Virus record (IMG/VR): IMGVR_UViG_3300020193_000003
Length of the DNA: 64,000 bases
DNA from: a virus
Reading direction: 5' to 3' (one strand)
How positions within the stretch are numbered: the stretch's first letter is position 1; every line of letters starts with the position of its first letter. The position numbers and the translations under genes were made by a program. Below the pieces are notes generated by a model. That model ran no database searches. It worked only from the letters and a program-made list of their open reading frames with translations, and was not told where the DNA came from. Shown here one piece after another: positions 1 through 21,421 of this stretch.

Positions 1-357
1 GCGGCGAAAATAGCGGCTGGCGCGATCACCTCGGACAAGATCGCCGATGCGACGATCGACGAAAAAGCCAGCAACTACACGCTCGTTCTGACCGACAAGA
101 ACAAGTTCATCAAGATGAACGTCGATAGCGCCAACACGGTCACGGTTCCGACCAACGCGTCGGTCGCCTGGCCGGTCGGCTCCCAGATCCACGTCATCCA
201 GTACGGTCCGGGCAAGACCGAGATAGTTCCCGTGTCGGGCACGGTGTACATTTATGCGACACCCGGCAAGTTTTTGAGGGACAGATACTCGTCGGCCACG
301 CTGCTGAAGTGCGACACCAACATCTGGCTGCTAATGGGTGACCTCAGTGCGACATGA
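1..357 (+). CDS. Tail-fibre-like protein, C-terminal part (5'-truncated by window)
   Basis: Open frame from base 1 (AAKIAAGAITSDKIADATIDEKASNYTLVLTDKNKF...). The C-terminus YTLVLTDKNK...VPTNASVAWPVGSQI...ATPG...WLLMGDLS is clearly homologous to the C-terminus of the 21425-24502 fibre. Confidence 0.75.
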   Translation, partial: AAKIAAGAITSDKIADATIDEKASNYTLVLTDKNKFIKMNVDSANTVTVPTNASVAWPVGSQIHVIQYGPGKTEIVPVSGTVYIYATPGKFLRDRYSSATLLKCDTNIWLLMGDLSAT

Positions 358-932
358 TGCCGATTCCGGGAATAACTTCTAGCGAAGGCAAGAAGCCTTC
401 GACGCCGACCATCGGCACGGCGAGCTCAATAAGCTCCAACAGCGCCGTCATAAACTTCACGGAATCCACATACATCGGCAAGAGCCCGAGCCCGATTTAC
501 CGGGTCTACAACGACTTCGACACGACCCAGGTCATGGGATTGTGCACTTCGTCGTGTAACAGCATCTCGCTGACGGGCCTCGCTGCCTCGACGTCCTACA
601 CGGTGAAAATGAGGCTGGAAGCCACGTACGGCGTGAATTCCGATTTCTCCAGCACCCTGACTTTCGAGACGATTTCTCCGCCCGTCACTCCTCCCGTCAC
701 CCCGCCCGTCACCCCGCCCGTCACTCCTCCCGTCACCCCGCCGGTCACTCCTCCCGTTTCGCCGCCAGTCAGCCCACCCGTAAGTCCGCCCGTTTCGCCG
801 CCAGTCACCCCGCCGGTCACTCCTCCCGTCACTCCTCCCGTCACTCCTCCCGTCACTCCGCCCACGGAATGTTCTTTCTGCCCACCAGAAACGCCATACT
901 GTGTGAACAACGAACCCCCGTGTTTCGGGTAA
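354..932 (+). CDS. FnIII-like domain plus proline-rich (PPVT/S)n protein with Cys-rich tail; putative virion/fibre-associated
   Basis: ATGA overlap with the upstream gene; PTIGTA...F.....G....Y....GL...TSYTV FnIII-like pattern; 15 PPV[T/S] repeats; paralogous N-terminus (GKKPxxPTIGT) with 20900-21421. Confidence 0.8.
   Translation: MMPIPGITSSEGKKPSTPTIGTASSISSNSAVINFTESTYIGKSPSPIYRVYNDFDTTQVMGLCTSSCNSISLTGLAASTSYTVKMRLEATYGVNSDFSSTLTFETISPPVTPPVTPPVTPPVTPPVTPPVTPPVSPPVSPPVSPPVSPPVTPPVTPPVTPPVTPPVTPPTECSFCPPETPYCVNNEPPCFG
678..857 (+). repeat. 12-bp tandem repeat x15 encoding PPVT x6, PPVS x4, PPVT x5
   Basis: Read directly from the sequence; codons vary synonymously. Confidence 0.95.
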
Positions 933-969
933 TATCAAAAACATAAAATAGGAAGGTAAGATTCAAAAT

Positions 970-1173
970 ATGGCCACACAAAAATTTGCCCTAGTTGTAG
1001 AGGGTGAGGTATTTATGCTCATCAGTTATGACGACACATATCCACTTGCCGAAAGATGGACTGCAGGACTAAAAAGCAACCCAACAATTATTGACTGCAC
1101 AGAAATAGAACAAAACCCGTTAAATGGCTGGATTTGGGATGGGGAAAATTTTTCTGAACCAGAAAATAATTAA
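970..1173 (+). CDS. Small hypothetical protein (GWxWDGxxF C-terminus, fibre-assembly-like)
   Basis: SD-like AGGAAGG upstream; GWIWDGENF motif of the kind seen in small proteins downstream of phage fibre genes. Confidence 0.6.
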   Translation: MATQKFALVVEGEVFMLISYDDTYPLAERWTAGLKSNPTIIDCTEIEQNPLNGWIWDGENFSEPENN

Positions 1174-1175
1174 TT

Positions 1176-1400
1176 ATGAGCGCATGGGGCGACTATAAAA
1201 AAAGAGTAGGCAATGTTCGACCGTGGGATGTCCTGAACCCCGACAAACTAATAGATGAAAAGAACGCCGACCATCGCTATGCCATATGCGAGTCATGCCC
1301 CAGTTTCCTCAAGGTCACCAAACAATGCAAGGAGTGCGGTTGCTTCATGGCGCTCAAAACAAAAATTGCAGAGGCCGTATGCCCCATCGGGAAATGGTGA
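1176..1400 (+). CDS. Small Cys-rich metal-binding protein
   Basis: CxxC...CxxCGC...CPxGKW pattern. Confidence 0.7.
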   Translation: MSAWGDYKKRVGNVRPWDVLNPDKLIDEKNADHRYAICESCPSFLKVTKQCKECGCFMALKTKIAEAVCPIGKW

Positions 1401-2725
1401 TACAACGGGAGCTCAAGTGGGAACTACCCGACGCGCTCAGGGAGCCGCACGTGGTCGGGGATTTCTTCCCGACCGAGATGTTCGAGCGGGTGAAAAAGGC
1501 GGTCGCCGACACCAAGATGGGCACGCCCGAGGGCGGTCAGTTCCACACGATGCTGGCCAGGTGGGAGTCGCCGATCCAGTTCGATCCGGACGTCGAGGAG
1601 CACTGCGTCGCGAGGGCGAGGGAGATATTCGGCGACGACACCCTGCTCAAGGCCTACTTCTTCGCCGTGCGCTACCAGCGCAGGGAGGGTTGCGTGCCCC
1701 ACCTGTGGGAGCACACGGACCAGAACGGCACGCAGACAACGATCGACATCACGGTGGAGAACACCGCCGACTGGGACATCATCGTGGAGGGGCGACGGTT
1801 CAAGCAGGAGCCGAACAACGCCATAATCTTCGCCGGCCAGCAGCACATCCACTCGCGGCCCCCGTACCCGACCGACCGCGAGGACGTGTGGACGACGGTG
1901 CTGTTCCTGCACTTCACGCAGCCCGACCACTGGATACAGAGGGAGCGGGACGGGATACACAGGTACGGCGAGGACGGCGACGTGAGGTTCTTCAACAGGA
2001 ACCGATTCCTCGCCATGCCGGACGCGCCGCTCTCCCAGAAGGTCTGTTCCTGCCACGACTATTCGGGAACTCTCAGGCTGTACGACAAAATAGTCGGGGA
2101 ATTCCACGACTCGGATCCGGAGCTCGTGGACATGTCCGTGACGGGCAAGGAGCAACTCGCCCCAGGGATAGTGAGGTATTCGTTCGCACCGGGTTCGGCG
2201 CGAATCCTCAGGGGATTGATACAGAACTGCATGTTCGGCCAGTGGGAGCCGGCCGAGGTGCTGGTGGACGATCAGCGACCCGGCGTCAACCAACAAGCCA
2301 GGAGGTGCTACAACTACTTCCTGAGCGAGACTCAATCCGGGTGCCACCCGCAGGACCCCATCAGGAGGACCAGCGAGTCGCTCAAGCTCGGTCTGGACAA
2401 AATGATGGAGGATTTCAGATCGCAACATCACATAGAGGAGCTGGTGAGCCACCATTCCGTGTTGCTGAGGTACGAGGAGTCGGATCACTTCCACCACCAC
2501 ATTGACGATCACCCGAAGTTCCCGAGGGTCGTGTCGTCGTCGACGTTCCTAAACGACGACTACGAGGGCGGGCAACTGGAGTTCAAGGAATTCGGGTTGA
2601 CCGTGCGACCGATTGCGGGCACCGTCGTGTTCTTCTGCTCGAGCTTCCCCTACATCCACAGGGTCCTCCCTGTGCAACGCGGAATACGATACGCGATCGC
2701 AAAATGGTATGACTACAAGAAATGA
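1394..2725 (+). CDS. Tandem two-domain Fe(II)/2OG oxygenase (prolyl-4-hydroxylase-like)
   Basis: HTD...HSR in the N-terminal half; HID...FLNDDYEGG...HRV.PV..G.RY in the C-terminal half. Start reassigned to the ATG at 1394, overlapping the upstream stop. Confidence 0.8.
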   Translation: MVIQRELKWELPDALREPHVVGDFFPTEMFERVKKAVADTKMGTPEGGQFHTMLARWESPIQFDPDVEEHCVARAREIFGDDTLLKAYFFAVRYQRREGCVPHLWEHTDQNGTQTTIDITVENTADWDIIVEGRRFKQEPNNAIIFAGQQHIHSRPPYPTDREDVWTTVLFLHFTQPDHWIQRERDGIHRYGEDGDVRFFNRNRFLAMPDAPLSQKVCSCHDYSGTLRLYDKIVGEFHDSDPELVDMSVTGKEQLAPGIVRYSFAPGSARILRGLIQNCMFGQWEPAEVLVDDQRPGVNQQARRCYNYFLSETQSGCHPQDPIRRTSESLKLGLDKMMEDFRSQHHIEELVSHHSVLLRYEESDHFHHHIDDHPKFPRVVSSSTFLNDDYEGGQLEFKEFGLTVRPIAGTVVFFCSSFPYIHRVLPVQRGIRYAIAKWYDYKK

Positions 2726-3590
2726 GCAACGAGCCAGGGAGGATTTGGCGCGCAATCTCAGGTTCATAGAAATAGAGCTGTTCGCTTTTTGCAACAGGAA
2801 GTGTTGGTTCTGTCCGAACTCGGCGATAGACAGACTGTCCAACGAGGACGTGATGCCCGAGGCGACCTACCGCAACATCGTGTCGCAGCTGGGGCAAATG
2901 TCCTTCGCCGGAGAGGTTGCCTTCAGCAGGTACAACGAGCCCCTCTCGAGAAAGGAGTTGTTTCTCGACAGGCTCAGGATCGCCAGGTCGCACCTTCCTG
3001 GGGCGAAGCTGAGAACGAACACTAACGGCGACTATCTCAACAGGGAGTACGTGCACGAGCTCAGGGACGCTGGCCTGAACGAGCTCTTCGTTCAGCAGTA
3101 TCTCGGAAACGAGGAATCGTACGACCACTCAAAAATGAGGTCGGCGATCTTCAGGAAGGTCGACCAGCTGGGTTTCTCCTACTCCGTGGTGTCCGACCTG
3201 CACAACCAGAGGTTCGAGATAAACCTGAACACGGTCGGCATCACGGTGCACGTGAGGGGAAGGAACTTCGAGCTTGAGGGATCCGGTAGGACCGACGCGC
3301 TTAGGAAAATGGTGCGGGAATCCTACGTCCGGACCAGGGCCTGCGACCAGCCCTTCCACAACATGTACATCGACTACAACGGGAACGCGATGGTGTGCTG
3401 CAACACCAGATCCGACGTCCCGGAACACTCTGGTGCGATCATGGGGAACATGAACGAGTCCGAGCTGTGGGAGATATTTTCCTCCGAAAATTACTCGAGC
3501 TGGAGGCTCCATCTCGCCGACGACGGCATAAAAACGGGGATATGTGCCAGTTGCAAGATCGGTCTGTCCGTCAACGAGTTCGTCGGGTGA
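2709..3590 (+). CDS. Radical SAM protein with SPASM/twitch domain
   Basis: CNRKCWFC (CxxxCxxC), YNEPL, TNGDYL; C-terminal C...CC...GN...CxxC. Confidence 0.88.
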   Translation: MTTRNEQRAREDLARNLRFIEIELFAFCNRKCWFCPNSAIDRLSNEDVMPEATYRNIVSQLGQMSFAGEVAFSRYNEPLSRKELFLDRLRIARSHLPGAKLRTNTNGDYLNREYVHELRDAGLNELFVQQYLGNEESYDHSKMRSAIFRKVDQLGFSYSVVSDLHNQRFEINLNTVGITVHVRGRNFELEGSGRTDALRKMVRESYVRTRACDQPFHNMYIDYNGNAMVCCNTRSDVPEHSGAIMGNMNESELWEIFSSENYSSWRLHLADDGIKTGICASCKIGLSVNEFVG

Positions 3591-3592
3591 CT

Positions 3593-4555
3593 ATGCACGC
3601 CAAGCACTCGCAAACGGAACGACCGATCTTTAGGGAGTGGGTCCACTATGACGACCTGACCGTCGTCCCGAACCAACCGATCGCCGTTTACGTGCTTGAG
3701 AACGCCAACATAAGCCCGAACGCCGGGCGATCCGTGAAACTGGAGGGGACGTGGATGGTGGTGACCGACGGTTTCGGTCAGTACGGGCACTTCCTGAGGG
3801 AGGGCGTGGGGGCGTTCCTCTACTGCCGGACCATTTTTCCGGATCTCCAGCCGCTGTTCATGCGGGTCCTCCCGTCGGAGACCAACGAGCAACTGAGGCA
3901 GACGATAGACATGATCTTTGCGCGGATGAGCTCCGGCCTGCCCGAACCGCGACACTACGAGGGTTCGGCGATTCACGAATTCAACTTCAGGATCGAACGC
4001 CTCGTGGTCATGCTCGACAACGGGAGGTTGCTGACCAGCCGTAGCCATCCCAACTTCTGGGAGTGCAGGACGCCGCACATAGCGGGCTGCCTCAGGGACT
4101 ATTTCTCGGATCTCATGACCGAGGACGAGACCGTCGCGCCGAAGATATTCGTCACCAGAAGGCAGCGCAACGCCGAAATCGCCGCCAGGAAACGCAGCGA
4201 CGATCCGTGGTACAGGAACAGGTTCGTGGACGAGGACCTGATGGGCACGGTGGAGCAGGCCTTCTCGGACCACGGGTACGAAATCCTGGATTTCGGGGAG
4301 ATGGCGTTCCCGGAGCAGGTGAGACGCTCCTTCAACGCCACAAATTTCGCGGGCTTTCTCGGCACGGCCTTCCACAACGGCATTTGGTGCCGGGACGGCT
4401 CCGTCTTCTACGGCGTCAAGGTGGGCTCTTACGGGTTCGACTGGGAGCACGACATAATACACACCGTCGCCGGGTCGAAATACTCGCTGATAGACGTCTC
4501 GGACGCAGACGACCCGTCGTCCGCGAGGACCAAGGTGGAGTCCTACATAAAGTAA
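3593..4555 (+). CDS. Glycosyltransferase family 61-like (DUF563-type)
   Basis: YGHFLRE, KIFVTRR, GYEILDFGEMAFPEQV..F.A....G..GTAFHN.IW pattern. Confidence 0.7.
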   Translation: MHAKHSQTERPIFREWVHYDDLTVVPNQPIAVYVLENANISPNAGRSVKLEGTWMVVTDGFGQYGHFLREGVGAFLYCRTIFPDLQPLFMRVLPSETNEQLRQTIDMIFARMSSGLPEPRHYEGSAIHEFNFRIERLVVMLDNGRLLTSRSHPNFWECRTPHIAGCLRDYFSDLMTEDETVAPKIFVTRRQRNAEIAARKRSDDPWYRNRFVDEDLMGTVEQAFSDHGYEILDFGEMAFPEQVRRSFNATNFAGFLGTAFHNGIWCRDGSVFYGVKVGSYGFDWEHDIIHTVAGSKYSLIDVSDADDPSSARTKVESYIK

Positions 4556-5238
4556 AAATCCGCGTGGTACAGATTCATGTCCTCGCGATTCATCTCCTCG
4601 ACCTGCTTCATGAGCGACGACCCGACCAGTTTGTGGACCAAATCCGTGCTGACGAAGTCGTAGTAGGCCGCCCAGGTGAACAGCGGAACGTGGCAGACTT
4701 TCGGTCCCAGCGCCAGATCGTCGATTATCTTGTTCACCAGTTTCAGCGGCGCGTTGTCGGCCCATTCGGGGTAGCTCACCCCCGTGTTCATTCGCTCCAC
4801 CCTGCAGGCGAGCCGAACCGAGGAAAGACGCTTTATCGCCATCGACGAGCTCGACGTCTCGCACCCGTTGGTGAGCATGGTCTGGTAGTTCGGGGTGTGA
4901 AAATTGTGCAGCCAGTGCTCGAACAGATCGAGCGTGTGCATCTCGTTCGGTTGATTTATGAACCGCTGGTTGCGCTTCTCCACGTTCAGCTCGCCGAAGT
5001 CGGTGGCATAGCAAAACTCCGCCGCCGTGCGCCGCACGGGATCCCGCACGAAGCACAGAACGTAGGTTTCCGGCGACGGATCCCTCCAGAAACAGTGATC
5101 CGCAAAATCGTGGTTCGCCGATGCGTCTATTCCGCCGGCGGCCATGCTCGCGTACAGGGGGCGGATGACCGACACGTCGAAAACCGGGTCTATGGTTTTC
5201 GGGATGTGAAAGAAGTAAAACGATCTAAAGCCAGTCAT
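4543..5238 (-). CDS. Sulfotransferase-family-like protein (degenerate PSB loop)
   Basis: FFHIPKT, CFVRDPVRR, NYQ, N.EDM.LY; KTID instead of the usual KTGG/KTAG. Confidence 0.6.
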   Translation of the reverse strand: MTGFRSFYFFHIPKTIDPVFDVSVIRPLYASMAAGGIDASANHDFADHCFWRDPSPETYVLCFVRDPVRRTAAEFCYATDFGELNVEKRNQRFINQPNEMHTLDLFEHWLHNFHTPNYQTMLTNGCETSSSSMAIKRLSSVRLACRVERMNTGVSYPEWADNAPLKLVNKIIDDLALGPKVCHVPLFTWAAYYDFVSTDLVHKLVGSSLMKQVEEMNREDMNLYHADFYFM

Positions 5239-6178
5239 CGACGGTCACGAACTCCGTTATCTCATGCCTAATCGCGTAATCGGATTGCTCACCGTATTCC
5301 GGGGGTAAATCGCGAGGAGTCGACTCATAACCGTATAAATCGGCCATCTGCTGGCTCATCCGTATGTAGAATTTGCCATGAATTTTGACCAAATCCATCG
5401 TATTTTGATGTTTGGCCTGTTCCTTTACTAGGTTGGCCCAGTCGTCGCCGTGCTCCGCCAACCCGGCTTCCCACTGTGGCGTGATTAGCGACGAGGTGTA
5501 TTTCAGGTAAGCGCGGCAAAGGAATTTAGTGCCCTTGGTGACTTGTTTGACGCCGTGAAAATAACAGTCCTCACCGGGCCATCTGGGGTCGCCCGATGGG
5601 AAGACGACTACGTCGCCGGCCCTGGGTTTGAACGTGTAAACCGCATTGCCGACTTCGTAGTTGTCGTTTGGGTATATGGTGCAGGTTAGAAAAAACTTTT
5701 CTCCGGGCCAAAACCACTCTCCGGTATTCCAATCGGTGTGGTACTCCATGGCCCTCCCATTGCCAACGCCGCCGCCCTCCGAGTAGACGGCGAGATTCGG
5801 TTCGGTGATGAACGATCTCGGGTGTAACGGAACGCGGTTGGCGCCAACGTAGTGGTGGATCGCCGAGTGCGCTGCGATCTGGAGGATTGCGAAAATGCCA
5901 ATTTCCTCCGATAGGTGTTCTTCGGTTTGAGGCGTCGCCTCGTTTGAAAACGCATCAAGGTTCGGGGAAGCGTATGCGTTGAATCCGACCGGGGACGCGT
6001 AATCACCGAAGACGAACCAGGGCTTCCACGGTTCATAAAACCGCCCCCGACTGCTCCTCTGCCTGTTGCTTGCAAGCCTTGAGCTTAATTCTTTCGTTGA
6101 GTGCGAGGGGATCAGACCCCTGTAAACCATAACCAACGGCGCTATCTCTTTCGGTTCCACTACGGTAAATGCGGTCAT
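5225..6178 (-). CDS. Fe(II)/2OG oxygenase (P4H-like)
   Basis: YHTD...YPNDNYE...FPS...FHGV..VTKGTK; ATGA overlap start at 6178. Confidence 0.82.
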   Translation of the reverse strand: MTAFTVVEPKEIAPLVMVYRGLIPSHSTKELSSRLASNRQRSSRGRFYEPWKPWFVFGDYASPVGFNAYASPNLDAFSNEATPQTEEHLSEEIGIFAILQIAAHSAIHHYVGANRVPLHPRSFITEPNLAVYSEGGGVGNGRAMEYHTDWNTGEWFWPGEKFFLTCTIYPNDNYEVGNAVYTFKPRAGDVVVFPSGDPRWPGEDCYFHGVKQVTKGTKFLCRAYLKYTSSLITPQWEAGLAEHGDDWANLVKEQAKHQNTMDLVKIHGKFYIRMSQQMADLYGYESTPRDLPPEYGEQSDYAIRHEITEFVTVDDWL

Positions 6179-7017
6179 TCCCCACCTTCGCCCGCCAAGT
6201 AGCCCGACGGCGTCTCTCCCTGGACCCAATCGGCGTAGCCCACTGAGATCATTCTTTGCTTGAAGAAATCACCCCTAGCGTCGCCGCACGCGTCGTGGTG
6301 CAAGTTCGGTATGTGTTGTACGGGTGAAAGGACTTCCGTCGACGGACGCGCCATGTTGTTCGGAAGGCCCTGCGAGAACCACTGCAAGTAGGCATACCTC
6401 ACGCCCTTCGTGACGGCGTTTACTTGGTGGCAACCGCAGAAAGACGAGGAGTAGAAAATTGCGTCTCCCATTTTCGGGCTGACCTTTATTCCCCAAGGGG
6501 CGAACTCGATGTCACCCCCATCGTATCCGTCGTTGAGGATGAGGCCGGAAGTTATCGTGTTGGAGAGCGGGAATTGAAGTAGCGGCACGATCGGATCATC
6601 CCCGTACGGTAGGTCGTTATCGGTGTGCGGTCCGATGTTCTGGCCCGGCATGTATTTTATGATGTACCCCCTGGTTCTCCAGCGAACGCACGCGAGGGCG
6701 ACGGGGAAAAGTCGCATGTAATAAACGACGCATTGATAAAGGGCGTCTTCAAGGCTTATGGCAAATTGTCTGTGCTCCTCGGGCATGCCCTCGTAGAGAT
6801 ATTGGACGTATCTCGTCGGGGCGACATGAAGTTCTTGTTGGTCGTACTCGTATCCGCCGTCGCTAATCACCACGTCCTTCTTGTCTTCCAACTCCGAATA
6901 ACCCTGGGGCGGAGCGTTTTTCTCAACTCCGGACAGGAATTCCGAGAGGATTGATCTGTCAATTTCCGCCGCGTTCTCGAAGAGCACGACGCCGGAACCG
7001 AGATGCTTTACCCTCAT
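6175..7017 (-). CDS. Fe(II)/2OG oxygenase (P4H-like, HxDND subfamily)
   Basis: PHTDND...LNDGYDGG...CHQV..VTKGVRY; start MRVKHLGSG. Confidence 0.85.
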   Translation of the reverse strand: MRVKHLGSGVVLFENAAEIDRSILSEFLSGVEKNAPPQGYSELEDKKDVVISDGGYEYDQQELHVAPTRYVQYLYEGMPEEHRQFAISLEDALYQCVVYYMRLFPVALACVRWRTRGYIIKYMPGQNIGPHTDNDLPYGDDPIVPLLQFPLSNTITSGLILNDGYDGGDIEFAPWGIKVSPKMGDAIFYSSSFCGCHQVNAVTKGVRYAYLQWFSQGLPNNMARPSTEVLSPVQHIPNLHHDACGDARGDFFKQRMISVGYADWVQGETPSGYLAGEGGE

Positions 7018-7907
7018 CACCAGAACCTTTCCGTCAGGCGATGCAGGTGGGAGCTTTTCGTCGGATCCTTTAGGTCGGCGAAGGCCACCAAATCCTCCCT
7101 TAGCGACGGCATGTAAAGATTTGTTGCTTTTTGCGCGAGAACCGGGTCCGATATCGGATCCACGACGAACTCGCCGACTTCCTTGTTGGGCGTGCCGTGG
7201 GCGTACCAGCCGAGATACGAGTATCTGTGGCCGCCCGTGATCGGGAGTACCTCGTGCGCCGCCATGTAGTTGGACGGAAACATAAGCACGCTTCCCCTTT
7301 TCGGCTTGTAGGTGATCCCCAGGTAATTGAAGTGGTGGAGCCCCCCCGTGAAGTTCCTGCCGTCCAGTTGCGATTCGTCGTCCACGCAATCGTTCAGGTA
7401 CATCAAGCACGACACGCTGTTTCTCGTTGCCAGCTGTTGGGTCGGGTGCGGCAGTCCGTACGCATAGTCGGCGCTCGTGTCGGAATGAACGCCCAGGTAC
7501 GAGCCACCCTTCGTAGTCGAATACGAGACCAAGTGACCCTTCACCTTCCACCAGATGACCTTGTACGCAAGCGGGTATCGCCATATGTAGTGAAGCAACA
7601 GTTCATCCCGTGTCTCCTCGAGGAAATCCAACAAACGACGCGTTTCGGGGTCTTCGGTCTGGTGTGCCACCGAACATCTCCGGGGCATTTCGGAGGCGCT
7701 GTCCTTCGTGTAGATGTACTCGCTTTTGTTCAGCAAGACGCGATCCCCACTTTCCGGATCAACCGTCTCCGAGTACATGGTGGGGGCGTCGGCATCAACC
7801 AGTTTTTCCGCCATGTCAAAAGTCGCCGACCAATCAAGCTCAAAGGCCCGCTCAAAGGCGACGACGCCACCTCCGATGTCAACCAGTGAGTGCTCAGTTC
7901 TTTTCAT
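7017..7907 (-). CDS. Fe(II)/2OG oxygenase (P4H-like)
   Basis: VHSD...YLNDC...FTGG...FPSNYMAAHEV.PITGGHRY. Confidence 0.85.
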   Translation of the reverse strand: MKRTEHSLVDIGGGVVAFERAFELDWSATFDMAEKLVDADAPTMYSETVDPESGDRVLLNKSEYIYTKDSASEMPRRCSVAHQTEDPETRRLLDFLEETRDELLLHYIWRYPLAYKVIWWKVKGHLVSYSTTKGGSYLGVHSDTSADYAYGLPHPTQQLATRNSVSCLMYLNDCVDDESQLDGRNFTGGLHHFNYLGITYKPKRGSVLMFPSNYMAAHEVLPITGGHRYSYLGWYAHGTPNKEVGEFVVDPISDPVLAQKATNLYMPSLREDLVAFADLKDPTKSSHLHRLTERFW

Positions 7908-9328: not shown

Positions 9329-9338
9329 GGCTGGTTCA

Positions 9339-13460: not shown

Positions 13461-13464
13461 TACG

Positions 13465-13750: not shown

Positions 13751-14791
13751 TCATCTGAGCTCCTCGGGATTGATTATTCTTCCCCTCGATTGATTTGCCC
13801 CGATCACGCTGTCGTGGGCGTAGGGTTTTTTCAGACCATCCTCTCCCTCCAAAGTTCTGTTTTGGAACAGCGGGTTCGGCTTCTTGTGGAGCGTGGCCTG
13901 ATCCTTCATGTATTCGACCGCGAGGCAGTATTTCTTGTAGTCGTCGTAGAGCGGGTCAAGCCAGTGCGGATAGCACCACGTCTTCACATCGGAGGGCTCC
14001 CCGACGTCTACGAGAACCTCGTGATGCGGGCTGCCCTGGGCGTAGAAGGTGAGGTAGCCGTACCTGACTCCGGCGGTGACTGTCCTGACCCCGTGGGTTG
14101 CGTAGAAATTGCAGGGGAAGATCACGATGTCGCCCGCTTTGGCTGGGTGCTCAACACCCAGGTACGGAAAAAACAACTCGCCACCGGAGTACTGGTTTGC
14201 CCCGACACGGTCGGGCGACTCCGCGCAGTCATTGAAGTATGCCATTATCGCTACGGTCTGTCGCGCCCCGAGCTGCCCCTTTGGTATGTATCGTTTTCCC
14301 TCGCTGGACCTGTAATTGGTGTCGTTGTCGTTGTGAATCCCCAGGTAGTTGCCAGCAGAGTACCTCAGCGCATGACCCCTGGTTCTCCACCACAACGTCG
14401 GTAGCACCATCGGGAACTCGTCCGTGTACCGAATGACGCATTCGTACATCCTGTCTTCCAGGTACCTGAAGAAGTCCACCATCTCCTGCTCGGTGTGATC
14501 CTCCACGACGTTCAGCACCCTTACCGGGACTTCGTTGACCTGTTCGAGAGAAAACTTGTTTCCGTCCTCGTTTACGGCGTACCTGTTGCCAGCTTCGTCG
14601 ACGTCGTACCTCCACCGTTGCTCGTGGGCCGCCTTGCCCTGCTCGTCTATCCACGGAAGGAGTGTCGCCTGGTTTGGATCGAAGGCCTTCTCGAATACGA
14701 TTACTCCGCCACCCAGGTTTTGGGTGGACAAAGACGATATGCGAGCTATGGCCTCGTCGTCAATTTTGGGGTAGGTTCCCTCGTACCTCAT
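13751..14791 (-). CDS. Fe(II)/2OG oxygenase (P4H-like, HxDND subfamily)
   Basis: IHNDND...YFNDC...YSGGELFF...THGV.TVTAGVRY; close paralog of 9339-10385; ATGA overlap start. Confidence 0.85.
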   Translation of the reverse strand: MRYEGTYPKIDDEAIARISSLSTQNLGGGVIVFEKAFDPNQATLLPWIDEQGKAAHEQRWRYDVDEAGNRYAVNEDGNKFSLEQVNEVPVRVLNVVEDHTEQEMVDFFRYLEDRMYECVIRYTDEFPMVLPTLWWRTRGHALRYSAGNYLGIHNDNDTNYRSSEGKRYIPKGQLGARQTVAIMAYFNDCAESPDRVGANQYSGGELFFPYLGVEHPAKAGDIVIFPCNFYATHGVRTVTAGVRYGYLTFYAQGSPHHEVLVDVGEPSDVKTWCYPHWLDPLYDDYKKYCLAVEYMKDQATLHKKPNPLFQNRTLEGEDGLKKPYAHDSVIGANQSRGRIINPEELR

Positions 14792-15495
14792 GTTGTGGGA
14801 ACCGCTATTACCGGAAGACCCGTCGCGACTGGTCCAATCTGTTTTCCGTCTCCATCCAGGCCAGTTTTTATGCCCTTCGTCCAAGTCCACGGACGCTCGG
14901 TGTTGTTCTTGGTCTTCAGTTGGTCGTACTTGACCCGTTGGTCGATCAACTCCTTGTCGTCCCACAGGTTCTCAACGGAAACCGTCGCCGACGTCATGAC
15001 GGAGTTTTCGTAGACGTTGACGAAACAGAACGGCTCGCCGGCCTTGAAGGTGATCGGTTTTCCAACGATTCTGAGCCTCCAGTTCATCTGTACCTCGTCT
15101 GGCCACCAGTAACTCGGAACGGTTGCGGACAGAGCCTCGGCTTCTGGATGAAAATAATTTGGCGGTCCGGAGAACCATGTGCTGTACCCGGGTTCGGTTC
15201 TTATCACCCAACCCATGCCGAAGGAGATCATTCCGATTATCGAGCAATGAGCCTGCGCGCGCTGGTTCTTGGTGAACTCGCCGGAAAGAATCTTGGGTAC
15301 CGAGTTGCCGCCGTCCCACTGGACGGTGATGTCCTCGGCGACGACCATCTCCCAGCCGAGCACGTTCGCCGTCGTCATCGGAAGGCATTGGTAGGCGTGC
15401 TTTTTGTACGTCTCGTCCATCCATTCTCTTCTGATCCGTGATTGACGAATTTCGCACGGGAACTGCGTGGTTTTCACAAATCGAACGTGGGTCAC
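14788..15495 (-). CDS. DUF6065-like protein
   Basis: R.WMD.T..KHAYQCLPMTTAN.LGW...GPPNY...W...MNW..F.AGEPFC pattern as I recall it for DUF6065. Confidence 0.6.
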   Translation of the reverse strand: MTHVRFVKTTQFPCEIRQSRIRREWMDETYKKHAYQCLPMTTANVLGWEMVVAEDITVQWDGGNSVPKILSGEFTKNQRAQAHCSIIGMISFGMGWVIRTEPGYSTWFSGPPNYFHPEAEALSATVPSYWWPDEVQMNWRLRIVGKPITFKAGEPFCFVNVYENSVMTSATVSVENLWDDKELIDQRVKYDQLKTKNNTERPWTWTKGIKTGLDGDGKQIGPVATGLPVIAVPTT

Positions 15496-16229
15496 CTGTT
15501 GTCCGCCCACTCATCGGTGACGCCACGCGCCGCACGGGGGGCGGCGAGGTTGCCGTACTGGGACGCTTTGCCCTGATTCTTGTCGTTGTAGTCGAACATC
15601 GTCACCGCCGAGTACTTGACCCCAGTCGTGACCGGAAGCGCAGCGTGGGCGTATATGAATGTGGACGGGAAGAAAAGCGTGTCGCCCGCCTCGGGCTTGA
15701 ACTTGAGTTGAAAGTACGGGAAGAACAGCTCACCCCCCTCGTAGTCGTCATTGAGATACATGATCGACGAAATGGTGCAAACGTACGAGAATCCGTGGTC
15801 CGTGTGGACCTGAAAGTGTTGCCCGACGCCGTATCTGACGTAATTTATCGCTTCCATGAAATTCATCTTGACGTTGTACAGTGACTCGTAGTGCCTCAGG
15901 CACGCCGTCAGCGGATTCGTTGTGTCACGCCAAATGTTGGCGATTTCGGCGAACTCGGCGGGAGCCGATTCGGCGTAATTCTGATCTATCTTGCAATCGA
16001 CGCAATCCCTGTATTCTGGCATCCTTTGCTCGTGACCGACCAAAGCCTCCATCCACATGTACGGCGCCGTCTCGCTGTCTCCGATCGTTTTCTCTAGGCG
16101 GTCGATCAGTCCGAGCTCCTTCGGCAACATGTTTCGATAAACGATTATTCCCAATCTCGGGTCGCCGATGTATTCGGCGTTGACGCTCACCTGATTCTCG
16201 GTCGTCGCAGAAGTTTCTGTTTCGGTCAT
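15492..16229 (-). CDS. Fe(II)/2OG oxygenase (P4H-like)
   Basis: VHTD...YLNDDYEGGELFF...FPSTFIYAHAALPVTTGVKY. Confidence 0.88.
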   Translation of the reverse strand: MTETETSATTENQVSVNAEYIGDPRLGIIVYRNMLPKELGLIDRLEKTIGDSETAPYMWMEALVGHEQRMPEYRDCVDCKIDQNYAESAPAEFAEIANIWRDTTNPLTACLRHYESLYNVKMNFMEAINYVRYGVGQHFQVHTDHGFSYVCTISSIMYLNDDYEGGELFFPYFQLKFKPEAGDTLFFPSTFIYAHAALPVTTGVKYSAVTMFDYNDKNQGKASQYGNLAAPRAARGVTDEWADNR

Positions 16230-16325
16230 TGCTCCTCCAGTACGTACAGCATAGTCTGGTTCGTCGCCAGCAACATGGGGTGTATCATTGTTGAATCAAC
16301 GACGGGAACTGGGAGATTTGAACAT

Positions 16326-17225
16326 ATGTTGACACTCGCCGAAGACAGGGATTTGGTCAAGCTGCCAGTCTCAATCTACGATGTGAAGATTTCGTCCGCC
16401 GACGGAAAAACGAAGGATCTGCTCTCCGAGAAGAACGGCAAGGTAACCCTGATTTTCAATGTCGCTGCCGGGTGCGGAAACATACCCCAGCACGGAGTTC
16501 TGGAGGAGCTGAACCAGATTTACGCAGATGAGCCTGACTTCTCCATCGTCGCCGTGGTGGTCGATGATTTCGTCTGTCACGGATATCCGGAGTTCCAGAA
16601 CGGCCTCGACGAATACATAAGGACAAACGATCTGTCCCTTACGGCGGGGGAGATGGCGCAAAAGTATGCCGTGGATAATTTCGGCACCACATATCAGTTC
16701 ACCGAGTTGACCAACGGCAGGTACGACAAGCACACATACGACCCCAACTACCTACCGAACGAAAACAAGACGCAGGACATCCATCCGCTTTGGTACTACC
16801 TCACGGGATGCCACGACGCCGATTTCATGCCGAACGGCGCACCCTACACGGCCGAGCGCGTCCCGTGGTCGGACAGGGACGTTGCGGTCGAACATGGCAA
16901 GCGTTCCCAGCATCCCCTGACCGGCAACTTCACCAAGTTTCTGATCTCCCGGGACGGAACAAGGATTGTCCGATACCAGAACGGATTCCTACTCGGAGAG
17001 AGGGACAAATTCGGCAACTGCTTCCCGTGGGTCAAGGAGAAGTACAAGCCAGACGGCCGGCGAAATCACCTGCCCGGGGGTCACCACGACGAGAACGACG
17101 AGTTCCTGCGCCATTACGACCCCGAAAAGGGTTGTTGGCCCAACAAGCGACAGAGACTCGGAGTGGAGCTATCCCTTGAGATGATCTCCCAGGACATCAA
17201 TTACTTCTTGTCCCTCGGGAACTGA
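16326..17225 (+). CDS. Glutathione peroxidase-fold protein with long insertions
   Basis: GKVTLIFNVAAGCGNIPQH..LEEL, HPLW, GNFTKFLISRDG; GGGAG upstream of ATG 16326 (alternative start 16275). Confidence 0.75.
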   Translation: MLTLAEDRDLVKLPVSIYDVKISSADGKTKDLLSEKNGKVTLIFNVAAGCGNIPQHGVLEELNQIYADEPDFSIVAVVVDDFVCHGYPEFQNGLDEYIRTNDLSLTAGEMAQKYAVDNFGTTYQFTELTNGRYDKHTYDPNYLPNENKTQDIHPLWYYLTGCHDADFMPNGAPYTAERVPWSDRDVAVEHGKRSQHPLTGNFTKFLISRDGTRIVRYQNGFLLGERDKFGNCFPWVKEKYKPDGRRNHLPGGHHDENDEFLRHYDPEKGCWPNKRQRLGVELSLEMISQDINYFLSLGN

Positions 17226-17238
17226 CGTCGACGCGGCG

Positions 17239-18270
17239 TCACCCGACCAGCAGTCTTATCCTGTCCGAGAATTCCGACGCTCTGTTTTCTGGCCACCGCG
17301 ACTCGTCCTCTCCGAGAGCGCGGTAGTGAGTGATTATCGAGTTCCTCGTTCCGTAAAAGTCTTGCGGGACGCCCAGCCCGAGATCTCTCAACGGATACCC
17401 CCCGGAGTGGATCGCATTCCCGTGCCAGATTATGGCGTCACCGACTCTGGGATTGAACTTGAAAATCGTCCTTCCGTCCGAGTTCACCAAATCGTGATAG
17501 TACCTAAAGCAGACATCGCTTTGGCTCGCCAAATTGTGCTCGGTGACGATCGAGCGATCGACTTCTATCAAATGGGAATTCGGCGATATTTCAAAGAGCC
17601 CGCTCGCCGGGTGGTGATCCTCAAGGGCTATGAGCACCCCGAAAAGTCCGGGTTCTTCGGGGGGGAACTGTTCCATTTGGCTATCCCTGTGAAACAGTAT
17701 CTTCGACGATCCGACCCTGGCTTCGACCATCTGGGCCACGTATCGCCGCCCCAGCTTGGCGCAGAAATCGTTTACGAAGCTTGCGCAAACCAATTTTTCC
17801 ACCACCAAAGATTTGGCGAACTCATTCCGGGCTGACAGGTAAGACCGCGAATGATCCCCGCAATCCGATATCTCTTTTGAGTACTCGGATAAGAACTCGT
17901 TGATTAGATCCCTGTCCACGGCGTTGTTGACGACGACGAAGCCATCCTTCACGAACAGTTCGAGCGAGGCAGTTCCGTACCCAAGGCTTGCGATCCTGTA
18001 GTCAACCCATGCCATCTCTCCCACTATGGGGGAGTAGAAAAATCCGTTTATGAAAGTGTTTTTGAAGAAGGTGTTCAGGGCGTGTATCACACCGAGCGGG
18101 TTGTTGGCGCCGAGGCTCGACGCCAGTGCCTCCACGCCGTTCATTTCGATGAATTTCCAGGCGGACACCATCGTCGCCTGGCCCGTCCTGCCCACCGCTC
18201 CGAATTTGTTGGCCAGAGCACCCAACAAAGAGTAGTCGTGGTACGGGATTGACGTGTCTTTCATCATCAC
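17239..18270 (-). CDS. Phytanoyl-CoA dioxygenase (PhyH)-like Fe(II)/2OG oxygenase
   Basis: FHRD...IALED....G.FEISP.SH...GDAIIWHGNAIHSG...R.SIITHY. Confidence 0.78.
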   Translation of the reverse strand: MMMKDTSIPYHDYSLLGALANKFGAVGRTGQATMVSAWKFIEMNGVEALASSLGANNPLGVIHALNTFFKNTFINGFFYSPIVGEMAWVDYRIASLGYGTASLELFVKDGFVVVNNAVDRDLINEFLSEYSKEISDCGDHSRSYLSARNEFAKSLVVEKLVCASFVNDFCAKLGRRYVAQMVEARVGSSKILFHRDSQMEQFPPEEPGLFGVLIALEDHHPASGLFEISPNSHLIEVDRSIVTEHNLASQSDVCFRYYHDLVNSDGRTIFKFNPRVGDAIIWHGNAIHSGGYPLRDLGLGVPQDFYGTRNSIITHYRALGEDESRWPENRASEFSDRIRLLVG

Positions 18271-18344
18271 AGAGTTTTGACGTCTCGTCTCGGGGGGGTT
18301 CTTCGTCGGCTCGAAATCTACGAACGGCAGACTAACATAAGTCG

Positions 18345-18884
18345 GTGGCCCGAATCGGAATCGTTTCCCCGGGGAAGCTGGGGAGATCGCTAGCCCACTC
18401 GATGATTGTTTCGGGTCACGATGTCGCCTGGTGCTCGCAGGACAGATCCGAGGAAACGATTTCGCAGGCGAGGAGAATGAACTTGAGGGAGTTTTCCGCC
18501 CTGGGCGATCTGGCGACTTTCTCCGAATTCATTTTTTGCGTCGGTAGCGGCTCGTGCGGTCCGCTCACGGCGGAAAAGCTGATTCTTTTCGGTTACGCAG
18601 GAACGCTCGTGGATCTCAACAGTCTCTGGGGCGAAAAGTCCGAGGAGGACTTCAGGTACCTAGTTTCCCGCGGCCATTTTTCTTACGTGGAGGGGGCGAT
18701 ACGGGGTTATCCTTACGACGTTTTCTCGGGGGTGCCTGCCGGCGAGAGGATTGTTTTGCTGAGCGGCACGGCCAGCGTTCGGGTCGGCGAACTATTCGCT
18801 GGCGGAACCTGGCTCCCTTTGATATGCGTAGAGCCAGCGAAGTCCGTCAACAGAAAATTGTCCGATCGTCAAACGACCGTGTAG
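18345..18884 (+). CDS. NAD(P)-binding Rossmann protein (6-phosphogluconate/3-hydroxyisobutyrate dehydrogenase N-terminal-like)
   Basis: RIGIVSPGKLGRSLA, VDLNS, YVEGAIRG; lacks the usual C-terminal domain. Confidence 0.65.
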   Translation: MARIGIVSPGKLGRSLAHSMIVSGHDVAWCSQDRSEETISQARRMNLREFSALGDLATFSEFIFCVGSGSCGPLTAEKLILFGYAGTLVDLNSLWGEKSEEDFRYLVSRGHFSYVEGAIRGYPYDVFSGVPAGERIVLLSGTASVRVGELFAGGTWLPLICVEPAKSVNRKLSDRQTTV

Positions 18885-19498
18885 AACGACGGAGTGGTGT
18901 ACCTCTCGCCAGCAGTGATCATCTTCACCCCGTGGAGATAGTGAACGTCGCCGGGGTGCATCACGGCCAGCCCGGGTTTTGGCTTTACGGTGATTCCGTG
19001 GAACGGGTACCACAGCTCCCCGCCCTCAAAATCGTCGTTGTAGTAAAACAGTGAGTTGAGGTCGTAATCGACAAACGCATTGGGATCGCCGTTGTTCAGC
19101 TGCTTGTCGGCGTGGGGCTGTTGCTCGGTTCCGGGACGCCACTTCATTATCACCGGCGGTCTCTTGCTCACTTTGACCTTGTAAAAGTCCTCTATGCATT
19201 TCTGCATTTTGTCAATGTATTTGTCGACCAGCGACCAAACGACCGGGTTTATCCTCTGAAGTATGTCGGTGCTGCACTGGCGGTCTTTCCAGTAGTCGGC
19301 GTCGTACAGACATGTGCCGTCCTCGGCGTACACGCTCTCGGCTTCGTTGTTCCACTCCGTGATGGTCGGGCAAAAATCCTGAATGACCTTCAGATCTTCC
19401 AGGTCGATGAAATTATCCATCACGACTATGTTTTCGCTGCTCGTCCCAAAATGACCCGGCGGAATGTTCCACTGTGACATGAATTCTTCTCTGTCCAT
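18869..19498 (-). CDS. Fe(II)/2OG oxygenase (P4H-like)
   Basis: PHAD...YYNDDFEGGEL...LHGVKMITAGERY. Confidence 0.88.
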   Translation of the reverse strand: MDREEFMSQWNIPPGHFGTSSENIVVMDNFIDLEDLKVIQDFCPTITEWNNEAESVYAEDGTCLYDADYWKDRQCSTDILQRINPVVWSLVDKYIDKMQKCIEDFYKVKVSKRPPVIMKWRPGTEQQPHADKQLNNGDPNAFVDYDLNSLFYYNDDFEGGELWYPFHGITVKPKPGLAVMHPGDVHYLHGVKMITAGERYTTPSFYTVV

Positions 19499-19501
19499 TG
19501 C

Positions 19502-20236
19502 CTAGATCCTAGACCATGAGGGATCCAGCCGAGCCCCTTCGTGGTTGTTCTCCACGAACTCGTACAGCATGCGATCGAGGGTGTTTGTCGCAAGTATCTG
19601 CTCCCGGTGCGCGGCGCAGAACTCCAGGATGCACGCCCTTTTCTCGCCGTCCCTTACGGTCACCTCCGATTCGTCGTTCCTCGCCCCGGTCGCGACCGAC
19701 AAATCAGCAATCAAGGATTTTCTCGCCGACATCGGGTAGACCGTCACCGTGGCCGAACGCTCCCAGGCGATCGAATCAACCCTCAACCGTGCGCTCGTCC
19801 ATCGTTTCCATCTCGGCGACCACAGGGCAAGGTTCCCACCGAGGGGTGCGAGCGACAAGTTCCCGAGCAGGAAAGAAATTTGACGGTTCGCAAAAAACGG
19901 GTAATTACCACCCTTTTCGCAGGACAGCATCGCCCTCGCTAGGGATATTGCGACGTCGTCGTGGTCGTCGTCGCTGATGCAGTGCGACACGGTTGACGCA
20001 AAATGATCAACGGGATCCCTCACGAGGGCGTAGCAGTTTATGCCTGCGCCGTCGAGCGCCGGGAGAATCCCCAGGTGTCCCGTCAGAATCTCCTCGGGCC
20101 CGAGGGCGGCCACCGTCCGCCCACCGGAATAGGAGGCCAGATCGTAGCCCTTTATGCCCGCCCCTCGCGCATGCATCGTTGCGATGACGGACCTGCCCGA
20201 GGTCCTCGGAATATGGCAGAAATATGTTTTATTCAT
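19502..20236 (-). CDS. Sulfotransferase-family-like protein
   Basis: YFCHIPRTSGRSV, GHLG, LVRDPVDH, N.Q, N.LD.MLY. Confidence 0.65.
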   Translation of the reverse strand: MNKTYFCHIPRTSGRSVIATMHARGAGIKGYDLASYSGGRTVAALGPEEILTGHLGILPALDGAGINCYALVRDPVDHFASTVSHCISDDDHDDVAISLARAMLSCEKGGNYPFFANRQISFLLGNLSLAPLGGNLALWSPRWKRWTSARLRVDSIAWERSATVTVYPMSARKSLIADLSVATGARNDESEVTVRDGEKRACILEFCAAHREQILATNTLDRMLYEFVENNHEGARLDPSWSRI

Positions 20237-20867
20237 TGTTTGGCGAATCTTGTTGTTTCCCCGATATGAAAGTTGTAGCTATCCATTTATCATTTGATAT
20301 TGGCATTTTTGCCATATGTGGATGAGTCCACGAAGCCGGAAACATAACAATGGAACCACTTTTTGGCGAATAGCTAAGATCGTGTTTGGTGAAAACTATT
20401 TCCCCTCCAACCTCAACAGTATTCAAATAAACTACAACAGCAATTATTCTCGTGTTTATTGGCTTTGGCGCCCATGGGGCTGAATCCAAATGTTCATTGT
20501 AGTAACCCGCATTTTTTCTATAAACGCCGACGAGAAAACCACTGTTGTACAGATTCGGGCATTCGTTTATCTCGTCAAATTGAGATATGTATTCAGTCAA
20601 ACATGAGTTGACTGATTGTTCAACTTCTTCTTTTATCTTCATGTATTGACCTGGTTTGCATCCAAAAGATTCAATTTTTTCTTTTGTCAAAAGGAAGTCA
20701 AGTGTGTTTTTTGCTGGGTTTGTTTGTCCGCCGAACGTCTTTCCAGTAGAAAGAATTTTGCCAGCATCTCTCAGTGCCAAAAACATCAGCAAGTCGCATG
20801 AATCGACGCTCACGGCGCCATCGAACACCATGATATGTTCTGATTTTTTACCGAGAAAGTACCCCAC
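20229..20867 (-). CDS. Fe(II)/2OG oxygenase (P4H-like), AT-rich gene
   Basis: EHLD...YLNTVEVGGE...FPASWTHPH...PISNDKW. Confidence 0.85.
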   Translation of the reverse strand: MGYFLGKKSEHIMVFDGAVSVDSCDLLMFLALRDAGKILSTGKTFGGQTNPAKNTLDFLLTKEKIESFGCKPGQYMKIKEEVEQSVNSCLTEYISQFDEINECPNLYNSGFLVGVYRKNAGYYNEHLDSAPWAPKPINTRIIAVVVYLNTVEVGGEIVFTKHDLSYSPKSGSIVMFPASWTHPHMAKMPISNDKWIATTFISGKQQDSPNNE

Positions 20868-20899
20868 TCGGCAATGCTACATCCGTTGCCAAATCTCCG

Positions 20900-21421
20900 T
20901 TAGCACGGCCCGTGTTGAGATTTGAAACATGGCGGGAAGTACGGCGGGAAGAAGGGTGGGAAGAACGGCGGGAAGAAGGGTGGGAAGAAGGGAGGGAAGA
21001 AGGGAGGGAAGAACGGCGGGAAGTACGGCGGGAAGAAGGGTGGGAAGAACGGCGGGAAGAAGGGCGGGAAGAACGGCGGGAAATACGGCGGAGTGACCGA
21101 CACCGAAGCCGCCGAACTGTCGGAGGCAACCCCGTAGTTCGTGGTGGCCACCACCGTAAACGTGTAGGCGGTGTTCGAGGTAAGACCGCTGACCGTGATC
21201 GGAGAAGAGGATCCCGTCCCGGTTTTGCCTTCAGGACTGCTCGTCGCCGTGTAGGTCACGGTCCCCTTGCCCGTGTAGCTGGATGCAGTGAAGGCAACGG
21301 ACACCTGCTGCGAGGTGTTGGGGGAGGTGTTGTTTGCGACTGCGTTAGCGGTCGGAGTGCCTATCGTCGGGGCGGTCGGCTTTTTGCCACCGGTATCTTT
21401 CGGATTGGTTCTGCCGGCCAT
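20900..21421 (-). CDS. FnIII-like domain plus (PPFF/PPYF)n proline-aromatic repeat protein
   Basis: PTAPTIGT...VSVAFT...YTATSSP...SPITVSGL...YTFTV.A.. FnIII pattern; 14 PPxF repeats; ends in CFKSQHGPC. Confidence 0.82.
   Translation of the reverse strand: MAGRTNPKDTGGKKPTAPTIGTPTANAVANNTSPNTSQQVSVAFTASSYTGKGTVTYTATSSPEGKTGTGSSSPITVSGLTSNTAYTFTVVATTNYGVASDSSAASVSVTPPYFPPFFPPFFPPFFPPFFPPYFPPFFPPFFPPFFPPFFPPFFPPFFPPYFPPCFKSQHGPC
20924..21091 (-). repeat. 12-bp tandem repeat x14 encoding PPYF/PPFF/PPCF
   Basis: Read directly from the sequence. Confidence 0.95.

Follow-up and report, generated by a model that had tools for sequence, protein, structure and literature searches.

Proline-repeat proteins encoded beside tail fibres of a lake phage are linked to P4H-type oxygenases, of which they are candidate substrates

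We analysed a 64-kb stretch of IMG/VR virus record IMGVR_UViG_3300020193_000003 (hereafter the window), which comes from an uncultured lake-water phage with a contractile tail and structural genes, and examined two proline-repeat proteins encoded beside its tail fibres together with the oxygenase genes lying between them. Genes were called by G+C content at third codon positions (GC3) and translation, and domains were assigned with Pfam. The window opens with the C-terminal end of fibre A (1-357, + strand; the 5' part lies beyond the window), and the 1025-aa fibre B, which has an Mtd_N N-terminal domain (PF18454, E 5e-13), is encoded at 21425-24502 on the - strand. As the original prediction stated, the two fibres share a C-terminal domain (53% identity, E 1e-33). 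A gene for a small array protein follows directly after each fibre gene, on the + strand in the left operon and on the - strand in the right operon. Fibre-tip protein 1 (354-932, +; 192 aa) has the sequence GKKPSTPTIGT, a fibronectin type III (FnIII)-like domain, a (PPV[T/S])15 array of PPVT and PPVS units (678-857, +; a tandem repeat of period 12 with 78% DNA matches) and a tail with four cysteines. Fibre-tip protein 2 (20900-21421, -; 173 aa) has the corresponding GKKPTAPTIGT sequence and FnIII-like domain, a (PP[F/Y/C]F)14 array of PPFF, PPYF and PPCF units (20924-21091, -) and a tail with two cysteines (KSQHGPC). These are the only proline arrays within the 64 kb and enclose all 12 oxygenase genes, in agreement with the claim that two fibre-adjacent repeat proteins bracket an island. 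Fibre B itself contains 12-bp tandem repeats (22710-22788 and 23088-23152, -), which encode (GNVT)n between repeated modules.

Both FnIII-like domains score somewhat below the PF00041 gathering cut-off of 25 bits (19.2 bits for 354-932 and 22.4 bits for 20900-21421). The two array proteins had been proposed to be paralogous; BLAST between them gave no significant likeness (E 0.3), and they group as one family when their relatives are included. Within both arrays the codon differences from unit to unit are mainly synonymous (181 synonymous versus 44 non-synonymous in the PPV[T/S] array, 108 versus 43 in the PP[F/Y/C]F array), and serine in the array units is encoded by both of its codon families. 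This synonymous excess and the use of two serine codon families indicate that selection acts on the array peptide.

The island encodes 12 oxygenases recognized by Pfam, 11 with PF13640 and one of the PhyH family. Nine of the 11 PF13640 genes exceed the gathering cut-off of 27 bits, and 5225-6178 (26.3) and 18869-19498 (22.7) lie slightly below it; an HxD...H motif, with a basic residue ten positions past the distal histidine, is readable in all 11. The count of 11 genes resembling prolyl 4-hydroxylases (P4H) thus held up, and a twelfth such domain found no confirmation: it had been placed in the N-terminal half of the two-part oxygenase ox1 (1394-2725, +; C-terminal PF13640, E 6e-14), where an HTD...H motif is the sole basis for an oxygenase domain and no Pfam domain was matched. 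Six tandem PF13640 genes with overlapping stops and starts occupy 5225-10385 on the - strand (5225-6178, 6175-7020, 7017-7907, 7894-8484, 8474-9328 and 9339-10385), followed on the same strand by ox8 (13751-14791), ox9 (15492-16229), the PhyH-family oxygenase (17239-18264; PF05721, E 1.8e-11), ox10 (18869-19498; of the type that in relatives comes directly after PPxF arrays) and ox11 (20229-20867; E 3e-11), which is directly downstream of the PPFF gene. The part between the left and right operons accordingly holds eight further PF13640 genes, the PhyH gene, three genes with a glutathione peroxidase (GPx) fold, DUF6065 and several small genes. Stops and starts mostly overlap throughout the island, which suggests that the array cassettes are co-expressed with the fibre genes. 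Among cultured phages, Synechococcus phages encode the nearest relatives of the oxygenases, 2-oxoglutarate (2OG) oxygenases with 25-37% identity.

We next followed the array proteins into other phages, in loci that are given L numbers below. Relatives of the PPFF protein are present in 174 IMG/VR stretches, and the set for the PPVT protein is smaller. The family has one to five FnIII domains and almost always a C-terminal PP[F/Y]F array that is closed by PPxFK. Relatives of the PVT-type protein carry Cys-rich knots at the C-terminus, with the same build as fibre-tip protein 1 in L010, L011, L012 and L022. In L004 and L008, PVT-type arrays are fused straight onto the fibre C-terminal domain, which physically joins arrays and fibre tip. 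We then counted downstream genes in 49 non-redundant loci that extend 1.5 kb or more downstream (40 with aromatic arrays, 7 with PVx arrays and 2 with Gly-rich tails). An oxygenase was found downstream of all 40 aromatic arrays; in 37 cases the distance was at most 1.5 kb, in 22 it was at most 100 bp with both genes on one strand, and in 38 the enzyme was of the ox10 type. The PVx arrays were paired with the other enzyme type, a two-part ox1-type oxygenase within 1.5 kb downstream in 6 of 7 loci. In the two FnIII homologues with Gly-rich tails, both from smaller phages, the tail replaces the proline array (L038:1936-3108 and L057:1749-2918), and neither the locus nor the whole sampled contig contained a PF13640 gene in either case.

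The link also holds in the converse direction, from enzyme to array. Oxygenases of the ox10 type are encoded by 493 IMG/VR stretches. A Pro/aromatic array was present in 61 of 68 fetched ox10-type loci of at least 6 kb, versus none of 79 control loci that had been fetched for other proline arrays and scanned with the same detector. This detector is based on composition; a strict (PPxx)≥5 pattern misses arrays in other registers in distant ox10 loci. The register indeed drifts across these loci (PPFF, mixed PFF/PPFF and xPPxFF), and the association persists down to 41% enzyme identity and over a GC range of 31-52%. When (PPxx)6 arrays of any kind were searched, true oxygenases were found, among the matches listed, near aromatic and PPVT arrays; of the poly-Pro or other arrays, about 100 in number, just 3 had one nearby. 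The original prediction that arrays and oxygenases co-occur across phages is therefore borne out in both directions. One further locus, L135:3762-5012, has a PFFP-type array whose reading frame runs on into what resembles a Hint/intein-type domain (GCINEDT...), within which the locus ends.

The PVT-type array is followed by a conserved cassette, in the order small W-DG-x-NF protein, DUF6171 and ox1-type oxygenase. This order is kept in the window, L002, L005, L010, L011, L012, L022 and L201, and it spans three unrelated carriers and GC contents of 39-49%. The two small genes had been overlooked in the original prediction. The first (970-1173, +), directly after the array, encodes a conserved protein ending W-DG-x-NF; by eye, FA-[IV]-V-[DE]-GEV and W-DG-x-[NK]-F motifs are seen in a like-placed gene in L002, L005, L010-L012, L022, L201 and L170, and phmmer with the window protein matched only L198 and L084, while the relatives' versions match one another. 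The second (1176-1400, +) encodes a Cys-rich DUF6171 protein of 75 aa (CxxC...CxxCxC...C...GKW; PF19668, E 9e-7, 29.6 bits at a cut-off of 27), a gene that lies directly after arrays in 21 loci. Matching cassettes also occur on carriers unrelated to the FnIII protein, namely the fibre-fused arrays of L002, L005 and L008 and further carriers in L201, L100/L178 and L170.

Glycosyltransferases in the relatives' cassettes belong to GT61 or PF11397. The window encodes a GT61-family enzyme (3593-4555, +; PF04577, 30.1 bits at a cut-off of 27), and GT61 lies within the cassette in the window and in L011. A PF11397 gene lies within the cassette in L002 (E 2e-29) and L061 (E 5e-22), and the window has no PF11397/GT60 member. 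PF11397 is the family of the Skp1 hydroxyproline GlcNAc-transferase and also of Thr-directed enzymes. A GT61-cupin fusion is encoded right behind the fibre-fused array and DUF6171 in L008. None of the hydroxyproline O-glycosyltransferase families GT95, GT77 and GT47 is present in the window, where GT61 is the sole glycosyltransferase. Searches of PDB sequences with the window GT61 and the L002 GT60-type protein gave no useful relative, nor did literature searches on PF11397 and DUF6171 give anything useful. The two-operon plan of the window recurs in L088, whose first operon (L088:454-2845) lies upstream of its PPFF operon and comprises a fibre, an FnIII protein with SPPP repeats and a Cys-rich tail, a GNAT acetyltransferase, DUF6171 and an oxygenase; in this FnIII protein (L088:454-1434) the SPPP repeats follow a domain that matches PF00041 with 60 bits.

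To assess what kind of oxygenase accompanies the aromatic arrays, we aligned and modelled the ox10 family. H129-x-D131, H189 and R199 are invariant in the alignment. A profile search against PDB sequences found P3H1 (1.5e-9) and also the Bacillus anthracis P4H, PiuC-type enzymes, LH3 and the PBCV-1 enzyme; TET-type entries appeared only at E > 0.5. In Foldseek the model (pLDDT 91) matched the PBCV-1 prolyl hydroxylase 5c5u best (E 3e-10), followed by P3H1, the B. anthracis P4H, LH3, CrP4H and PHD2 (TM 0.5-0.68). The double-stranded beta-helix fold of ox10 is hence closest to protein prolyl hydroxylases, with hydroxylation of peptidyl-proline as its putative activity.

The remaining genes of the island are of several kinds. 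The family assignments proposed for the PhyH, radical S-adenosylmethionine (SAM)-SPASM, GT61 and three GPx-fold genes all found matches. The radical SAM-SPASM enzyme (2709-3590, +; PF04055 and PF13186) has NCBIfam matches at the subfamily level only. Two sulfotransferase-like proteins had been proposed, and one of them is supported by look-alikes only: the protein at 19502-20236 (-) has no Pfam or NCBIfam match, resembles Sulfotransfer_2 clusters in the language-model features of the Atlas (0.96) and has structural look-alikes (TM 0.67); its homologues occur in 16 loci (21 open reading frames). The other, at 4543-5238 (-), has a YFFHIPKT motif, no Pfam or NCBIfam match, and an N-terminal YFxHIP[KR]T as its only feature in common with the first, and is sulfotransferase-like by motif only. 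The possible methyltransferase at 11986-12711 (-) remains a weak lead (class I/O-methyltransferase fold; Atlas 0.93, TM 0.55, low-confidence model), in a conserved island protein with homologues in 41 loci. Two GPx-fold genes, 10382-11005 (-; PF00255, 90.5 bits) and 11364-11981 (-; PF00255, 44.2 bits), both also matched in NCBIfam, flank a small gene (11008-11301, -), and a third GPx-fold protein with a long C-terminal extension is encoded at 16275-17225 (+; PF00255 at 26.3 bits, slightly below the cut-off; NCBIfam E 1e-10). The best-scoring of the three, 10382-11005, has alanine in place of the peroxidatic cysteine (NIATKAGYT); the other two retain this cysteine, with diverged Gln and Trp motifs. 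DUF6065 (14788-15495, -; PF19541, E 1e-43) is modelled as a dUTPase-like barrel (pLDDT 78; best folds dUTPases at TM ~0.4) with an invariant Cys37, and it is found in 52 loci alongside ox9/ox10-type genes. A Rossmann-like NAD(P)-binding protein at 18345-18884 (+) is a weak match (PF03807, E 0.009).

Outside the island, the structural genes include those for the tail sheath (40120-41580), the large terminase (51071-52384) and the portal (52639-54858). A PAPS-reductase-like gene (phrog_2302, E 3e-71; 45289-46521, -) lies within this structural region. The stretch is contained in at least 20 lake-water metagenome runs and in no RNA run among those listed. Neither megablast with the window nor tblastn with the PPFF protein matched any of 50,697 phage records, and the PPFF protein was thus found in no cultured phage of that collection. 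The nearest virus record (G001) begins about 33.5 kb into the window, and the island lies outside its span. Only two matches to the PPFF protein were found in cellular genomes; both come from metagenome-assembled bins and probably represent contigs of phages. The short-read contigs of four lake metagenomes break inside the PPFF array (20924-21091) and differently flanked contigs share array sequence, which indicates that other PPFF-carrying phages coexist in the same lakes; on array indels, the contig comparison in these four metagenomes gave no information.

The two-way co-occurrence, the prolyl-hydroxylase-like fold of ox10 and the glycosyltransferases in the cassettes together make the arrays candidate substrates of the oxygenases, as the original prediction proposed, on a basis of sequence comparison and models. 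Our preferred reading is that the adjacent P4H-type oxygenases hydroxylate the arrays and that some arrays are then glycosylated, to which we assign a probability of about 0.55. The data show which genes are present and in what order, how they are conserved, and the fold and catalytic residues of the enzymes; we infer from them that the arrays are substrates, and likewise the residue modified, the addition of sugar or sulfate and the location of the product on the virion. Each array would be the C-terminal tail, flexible or rod-like, of a small FnIII adaptor protein that sits at the tip of one of two paralogous fibres and is expressed from the same late operon as its fibre. While the particle is assembled, the 2OG/Fe(II) oxygenases encoded just downstream would hydroxylate the arrays, most probably at proline. 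In the type 1 cassette on the left (array with a Cys-rich knot, small protein, DUF6171, ox1 and GT61), the PVT-type array would be hydroxylated and then O-glycosylated on hydroxyproline (Hyp) or Thr/Ser. Members of GT60 and GT61 can also act on Thr/Ser, so the acceptor could be either; glycosylation of the PVT-type arrays is plausible. In the type 2 cassette on the right (long PP[F/Y]F array, ox10-type oxygenases and a sulfotransferase-like gene), the very hydrophobic Pro/aromatic array would be hydroxylated, and the new hydroxyls or tyrosine perhaps sulfated. The remaining island genes (the six tandem oxygenases, GPx-fold proteins, DUF6065 and PhyH) may provide further hydroxylation sites or redox upkeep.

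Several observations weigh against this reading. In the tree of FnIII carriers, the PPxF carriers form one clade and the PVx carriers a basal grade, and the pairing of array type with enzyme type on these carriers may therefore reflect one event followed by long synteny; independent support for the pairing comes only from the unrelated carriers and the array-less homologues. The pairing is also broken in places: L061 combines a short PPYF array with a DUF6171 cassette, L137, whose PPFF x8 array is internal, lacks PF13640 genes throughout its contig of 36.8 kb, and L198 has no PF13640 gene in the 2.3 kb downstream of its array. Seven of the 68 ox10 loci are without an array, two of which have a short array cut at the locus edge. 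A weak search for fusions of an ox10-type domain within longer proteins found none, and hence no oxygenase-array fusion. In plants, proline after Phe or Tyr is not normally hydroxylated. DUF6065, among the most conserved island genes, has the fold of a nucleotide enzyme, relatives of the radical SAM-SPASM enzyme were found in 0 of 91 related loci, and in cyanophage S-CAM9 related oxygenases lie among replication genes. These last three points also leave unsupported the first suggestion that the whole 20-kb island is one assembly line. In the closest viral precedent, the PBCV-1 prolyl hydroxylase, hydroxyproline was undetected in virions (PMC7019647).

The strongest competing explanation, which we nevertheless regard as unlikely, is that the island is a cluster for a secondary metabolite or peptide natural product, or for 2OG-draining metabolism, that came to lie next to the fibres through a hypervariable region and leaves the arrays unmodified. 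Published proposals point this way: Iyer et al. (2010) suggested secondary-metabolite synthesis for the tandem dioxygenase cluster of Syn9, which includes a dUTPase-fold protein with a conserved cysteine (PMC2938197) that the window DUF6065 matches, and Sullivan et al. (2010) put forward a part in 2OG/nitrogen stress or in DNA repair (PMC3037559). PhyH, the possible O-methyltransferase and the sulfotransferase-like genes are likewise of the kind found in natural-product clusters. A metabolic role leaves unexplained, however, why almost all relatives have an oxygenase as the gene next after the array, in many cases no more than 100 bp away, why arrays accompany 61 of 68 ox10 loci and none of the 79 controls, and why the array-less FnIII homologues are without oxygenases; no nonribosomal peptide synthetase, polyketide synthase, halogenase or transporter was found among the island genes scanned against Pfam.

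Alternatively, the oxygenases might act on other proteins, either of the host (for example translation factors) or of the virion, and the arrays might be unmodified polyproline-like spacers or hydrophobic adhesins. Bacterial P4H-type enzymes do modify EF-Tu (according to the title of PDB entry 5v7y, which is among the fold matches), PKHD/PiuC-type enzymes with non-collagen roles are among the best matches, 12 oxygenase genes seem excessive for two arrays, and the S-SCSM1 oxygenases flank fibres that have no PPxx arrays. We nonetheless consider this explanation rather improbable in view of the two-way co-occurrence and of the glycosyltransferases and DUF6171, which travel specifically with the arrays.

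For the left operon there is a separate possibility, to which we give equally little weight, that the radical SAM-SPASM enzyme cross-links the Cys-rich tail of the PPVT protein (by thioethers or similar), independently of hydroxylation and in the manner of ribosomally synthesized and post-translationally modified peptides (RiPPs). Its gene is indeed downstream of that of the 4-Cys tail, the PVT-type proteins of relatives end in Cys-rich knots, and the ox1 homologue of S-SCSM2R is near a radical SAM maturase. The Cys-rich tails are kept, however, in the 91 related loci that have no relative of the enzyme, whose NCBIfam matches identify no more than a subfamily. The RiPP analogy drawn in the original prediction also fails at the precursor, which would be a folded 192-aa FnIII protein in a fibre operon and not a leader-core peptide.

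Modification of nucleic acid, with TET/JBP-like hydroxylation followed by glycosylation and with DUF6065 acting on nucleotides, is very improbable: phage systems of TET plus glycosyltransferase exist, ox1 has a weak Tet_JBP match (19.6 bits versus a cut-off of 34.9) and DUF6065 has its dUTPase-like fold, but PF13640 is the best match of each of the 11 genes, prolyl and lysyl hydroxylases head the fold matches of the ox10 model, the profile search gave TET-type entries only at the E values stated above, and the genes lie in a fibre module, not beside replication genes.

Hydroxylation of the arrays by their neighbouring oxygenases would bear on a wider question. Genes for 2OG/Fe(II) oxygenases rank with the commonest auxiliary metabolic genes that aquatic phages carry, one cyanophage having as many as 24, and up to 2022 no study had specifically addressed what they do (PMC9602691). 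The statement that no substrate had been assigned to such clusters is correct in that their function is unassigned (PMC9602691, PMC3037559), and is to be qualified in that precedents exist (PMC2938197, PMC7019647). Cultured cyanophages offer related arrangements. In S-SCSM1 (MK867354.2 210680-219702; L214:422-9444), four 2OG oxygenase genes precede the fibre genes ORF244 and ORF245 and three follow; ORF245 has a long Arg/Pro-rich insert with RQPR[NS][FY]-type repeats, and ORF246 encodes a small Cys-rich protein between the fibres and the two-domain oxygenase ORF248. This phage may serve as a cultured model for fibre tailoring. In S-SCSM2R (L216:5188-11462), an ox1 homologue (phmmer 2e-22) is followed by four glycosyltransferases (one GT25), the radical SAM maturase and a further oxygenase, so that the enzymes are of the same kinds as those of the window's left operon. 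A much broader proposal, which we put forward tentatively and think less likely to be right than wrong, is that tailed phages in lakes and oceans possess a tailoring line devoted to the tips by which they recognize hosts, with hydroxylation of proline (perhaps also of aromatic residues) and then glycosylation, sulfation or O-methylation, giving rods like extensins or mussel adhesives; the oxygenase arrays of cyanophages such as Syn9 and S-SCSM1 would then be tailoring enzymes of virion proteins, not metabolic ones. The two-way genomic link of one oxygenase type to an easily expressed peptide array provides a concrete, testable substrate candidate. If hydroxylation and glycosylation of the arrays are confirmed, this would be, to our knowledge, the first case of enzymatic hydroxylation and glycosylation of the receptor-binding apparatus of a tailed phage; many "metabolic" phage genes would move into virion biology, and a new class of modified polyproline materials would come into view.

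Among the closest known systems are those described by Iyer et al. (2010). Like the island, the Syn9 cluster combines many unlike tandem 2OG oxygenases with the dUTPase-fold protein; for the phage clusters secondary metabolites were proposed and no protein substrate was named, whereas for bacterial operons co-encoded collagen-like and tail-collar proteins were predicted to be hydroxylated and then sulfated (PMC2938197). Unlike in those systems, there are no tryptophan halogenases here, and Pro-Pro-x-x arrays are linked to specific oxygenase types. The PBCV-1 enzyme vCPH (5c5t/5c5u), which is active in vitro on viral Pro-rich repeat peptides (PMC7019647), is likewise a small viral P4H-type oxygenase with virus-encoded proline-rich tandem repeats. 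It is, however, a single enzyme of a eukaryotic giant virus, encoded apart from the repeats, and the sequence identity is low, at about 15%. In the phages studied here, conserved cassettes place the enzymes, which have many paralogues, immediately behind the fibre-tip repeat genes, the repeats are of new types (PPxF and PPVT), and accessory DUF6171, GT61/GT60 and sulfotransferase-like genes are present.

The combination of a P4H-type enzyme with a glycosyltransferase recalls the Skp1 pathway of Dictyostelium and Toxoplasma (PhyA, then the GT60 enzyme Gnt1), with GT60-type enzymes found in L002 and L061, and the PPVx and SPPP (L088) repeats resemble the motifs of plant proline-rich proteins and extensins. 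In contrast to the Skp1 and plant pathways, the window encodes GT61 and no GT60, GT95 or GT77, no secretory pathway is involved, and the substrates would be virion proteins. Mimivirus encodes the means to hydroxylate and glycosylate repetitive fibre proteins of its own; its L230, a hydroxylase/glycosyltransferase acting on collagen-like fibres, has a two-in-one build comparable to the GT61-cupin fusion of L008. L230 and human LH3 act on lysine in Gly-X-Y collagen, whereas the phage proteins have no collagen repeat and the enzymes are nearer to prolyl hydroxylases, although LH3 is among the fold matches of ox10. Virus-encoded hydroxylation of a virus's own repeat proteins is thus already known in kind, and the array-enzyme cassettes described here would be a variant of it.

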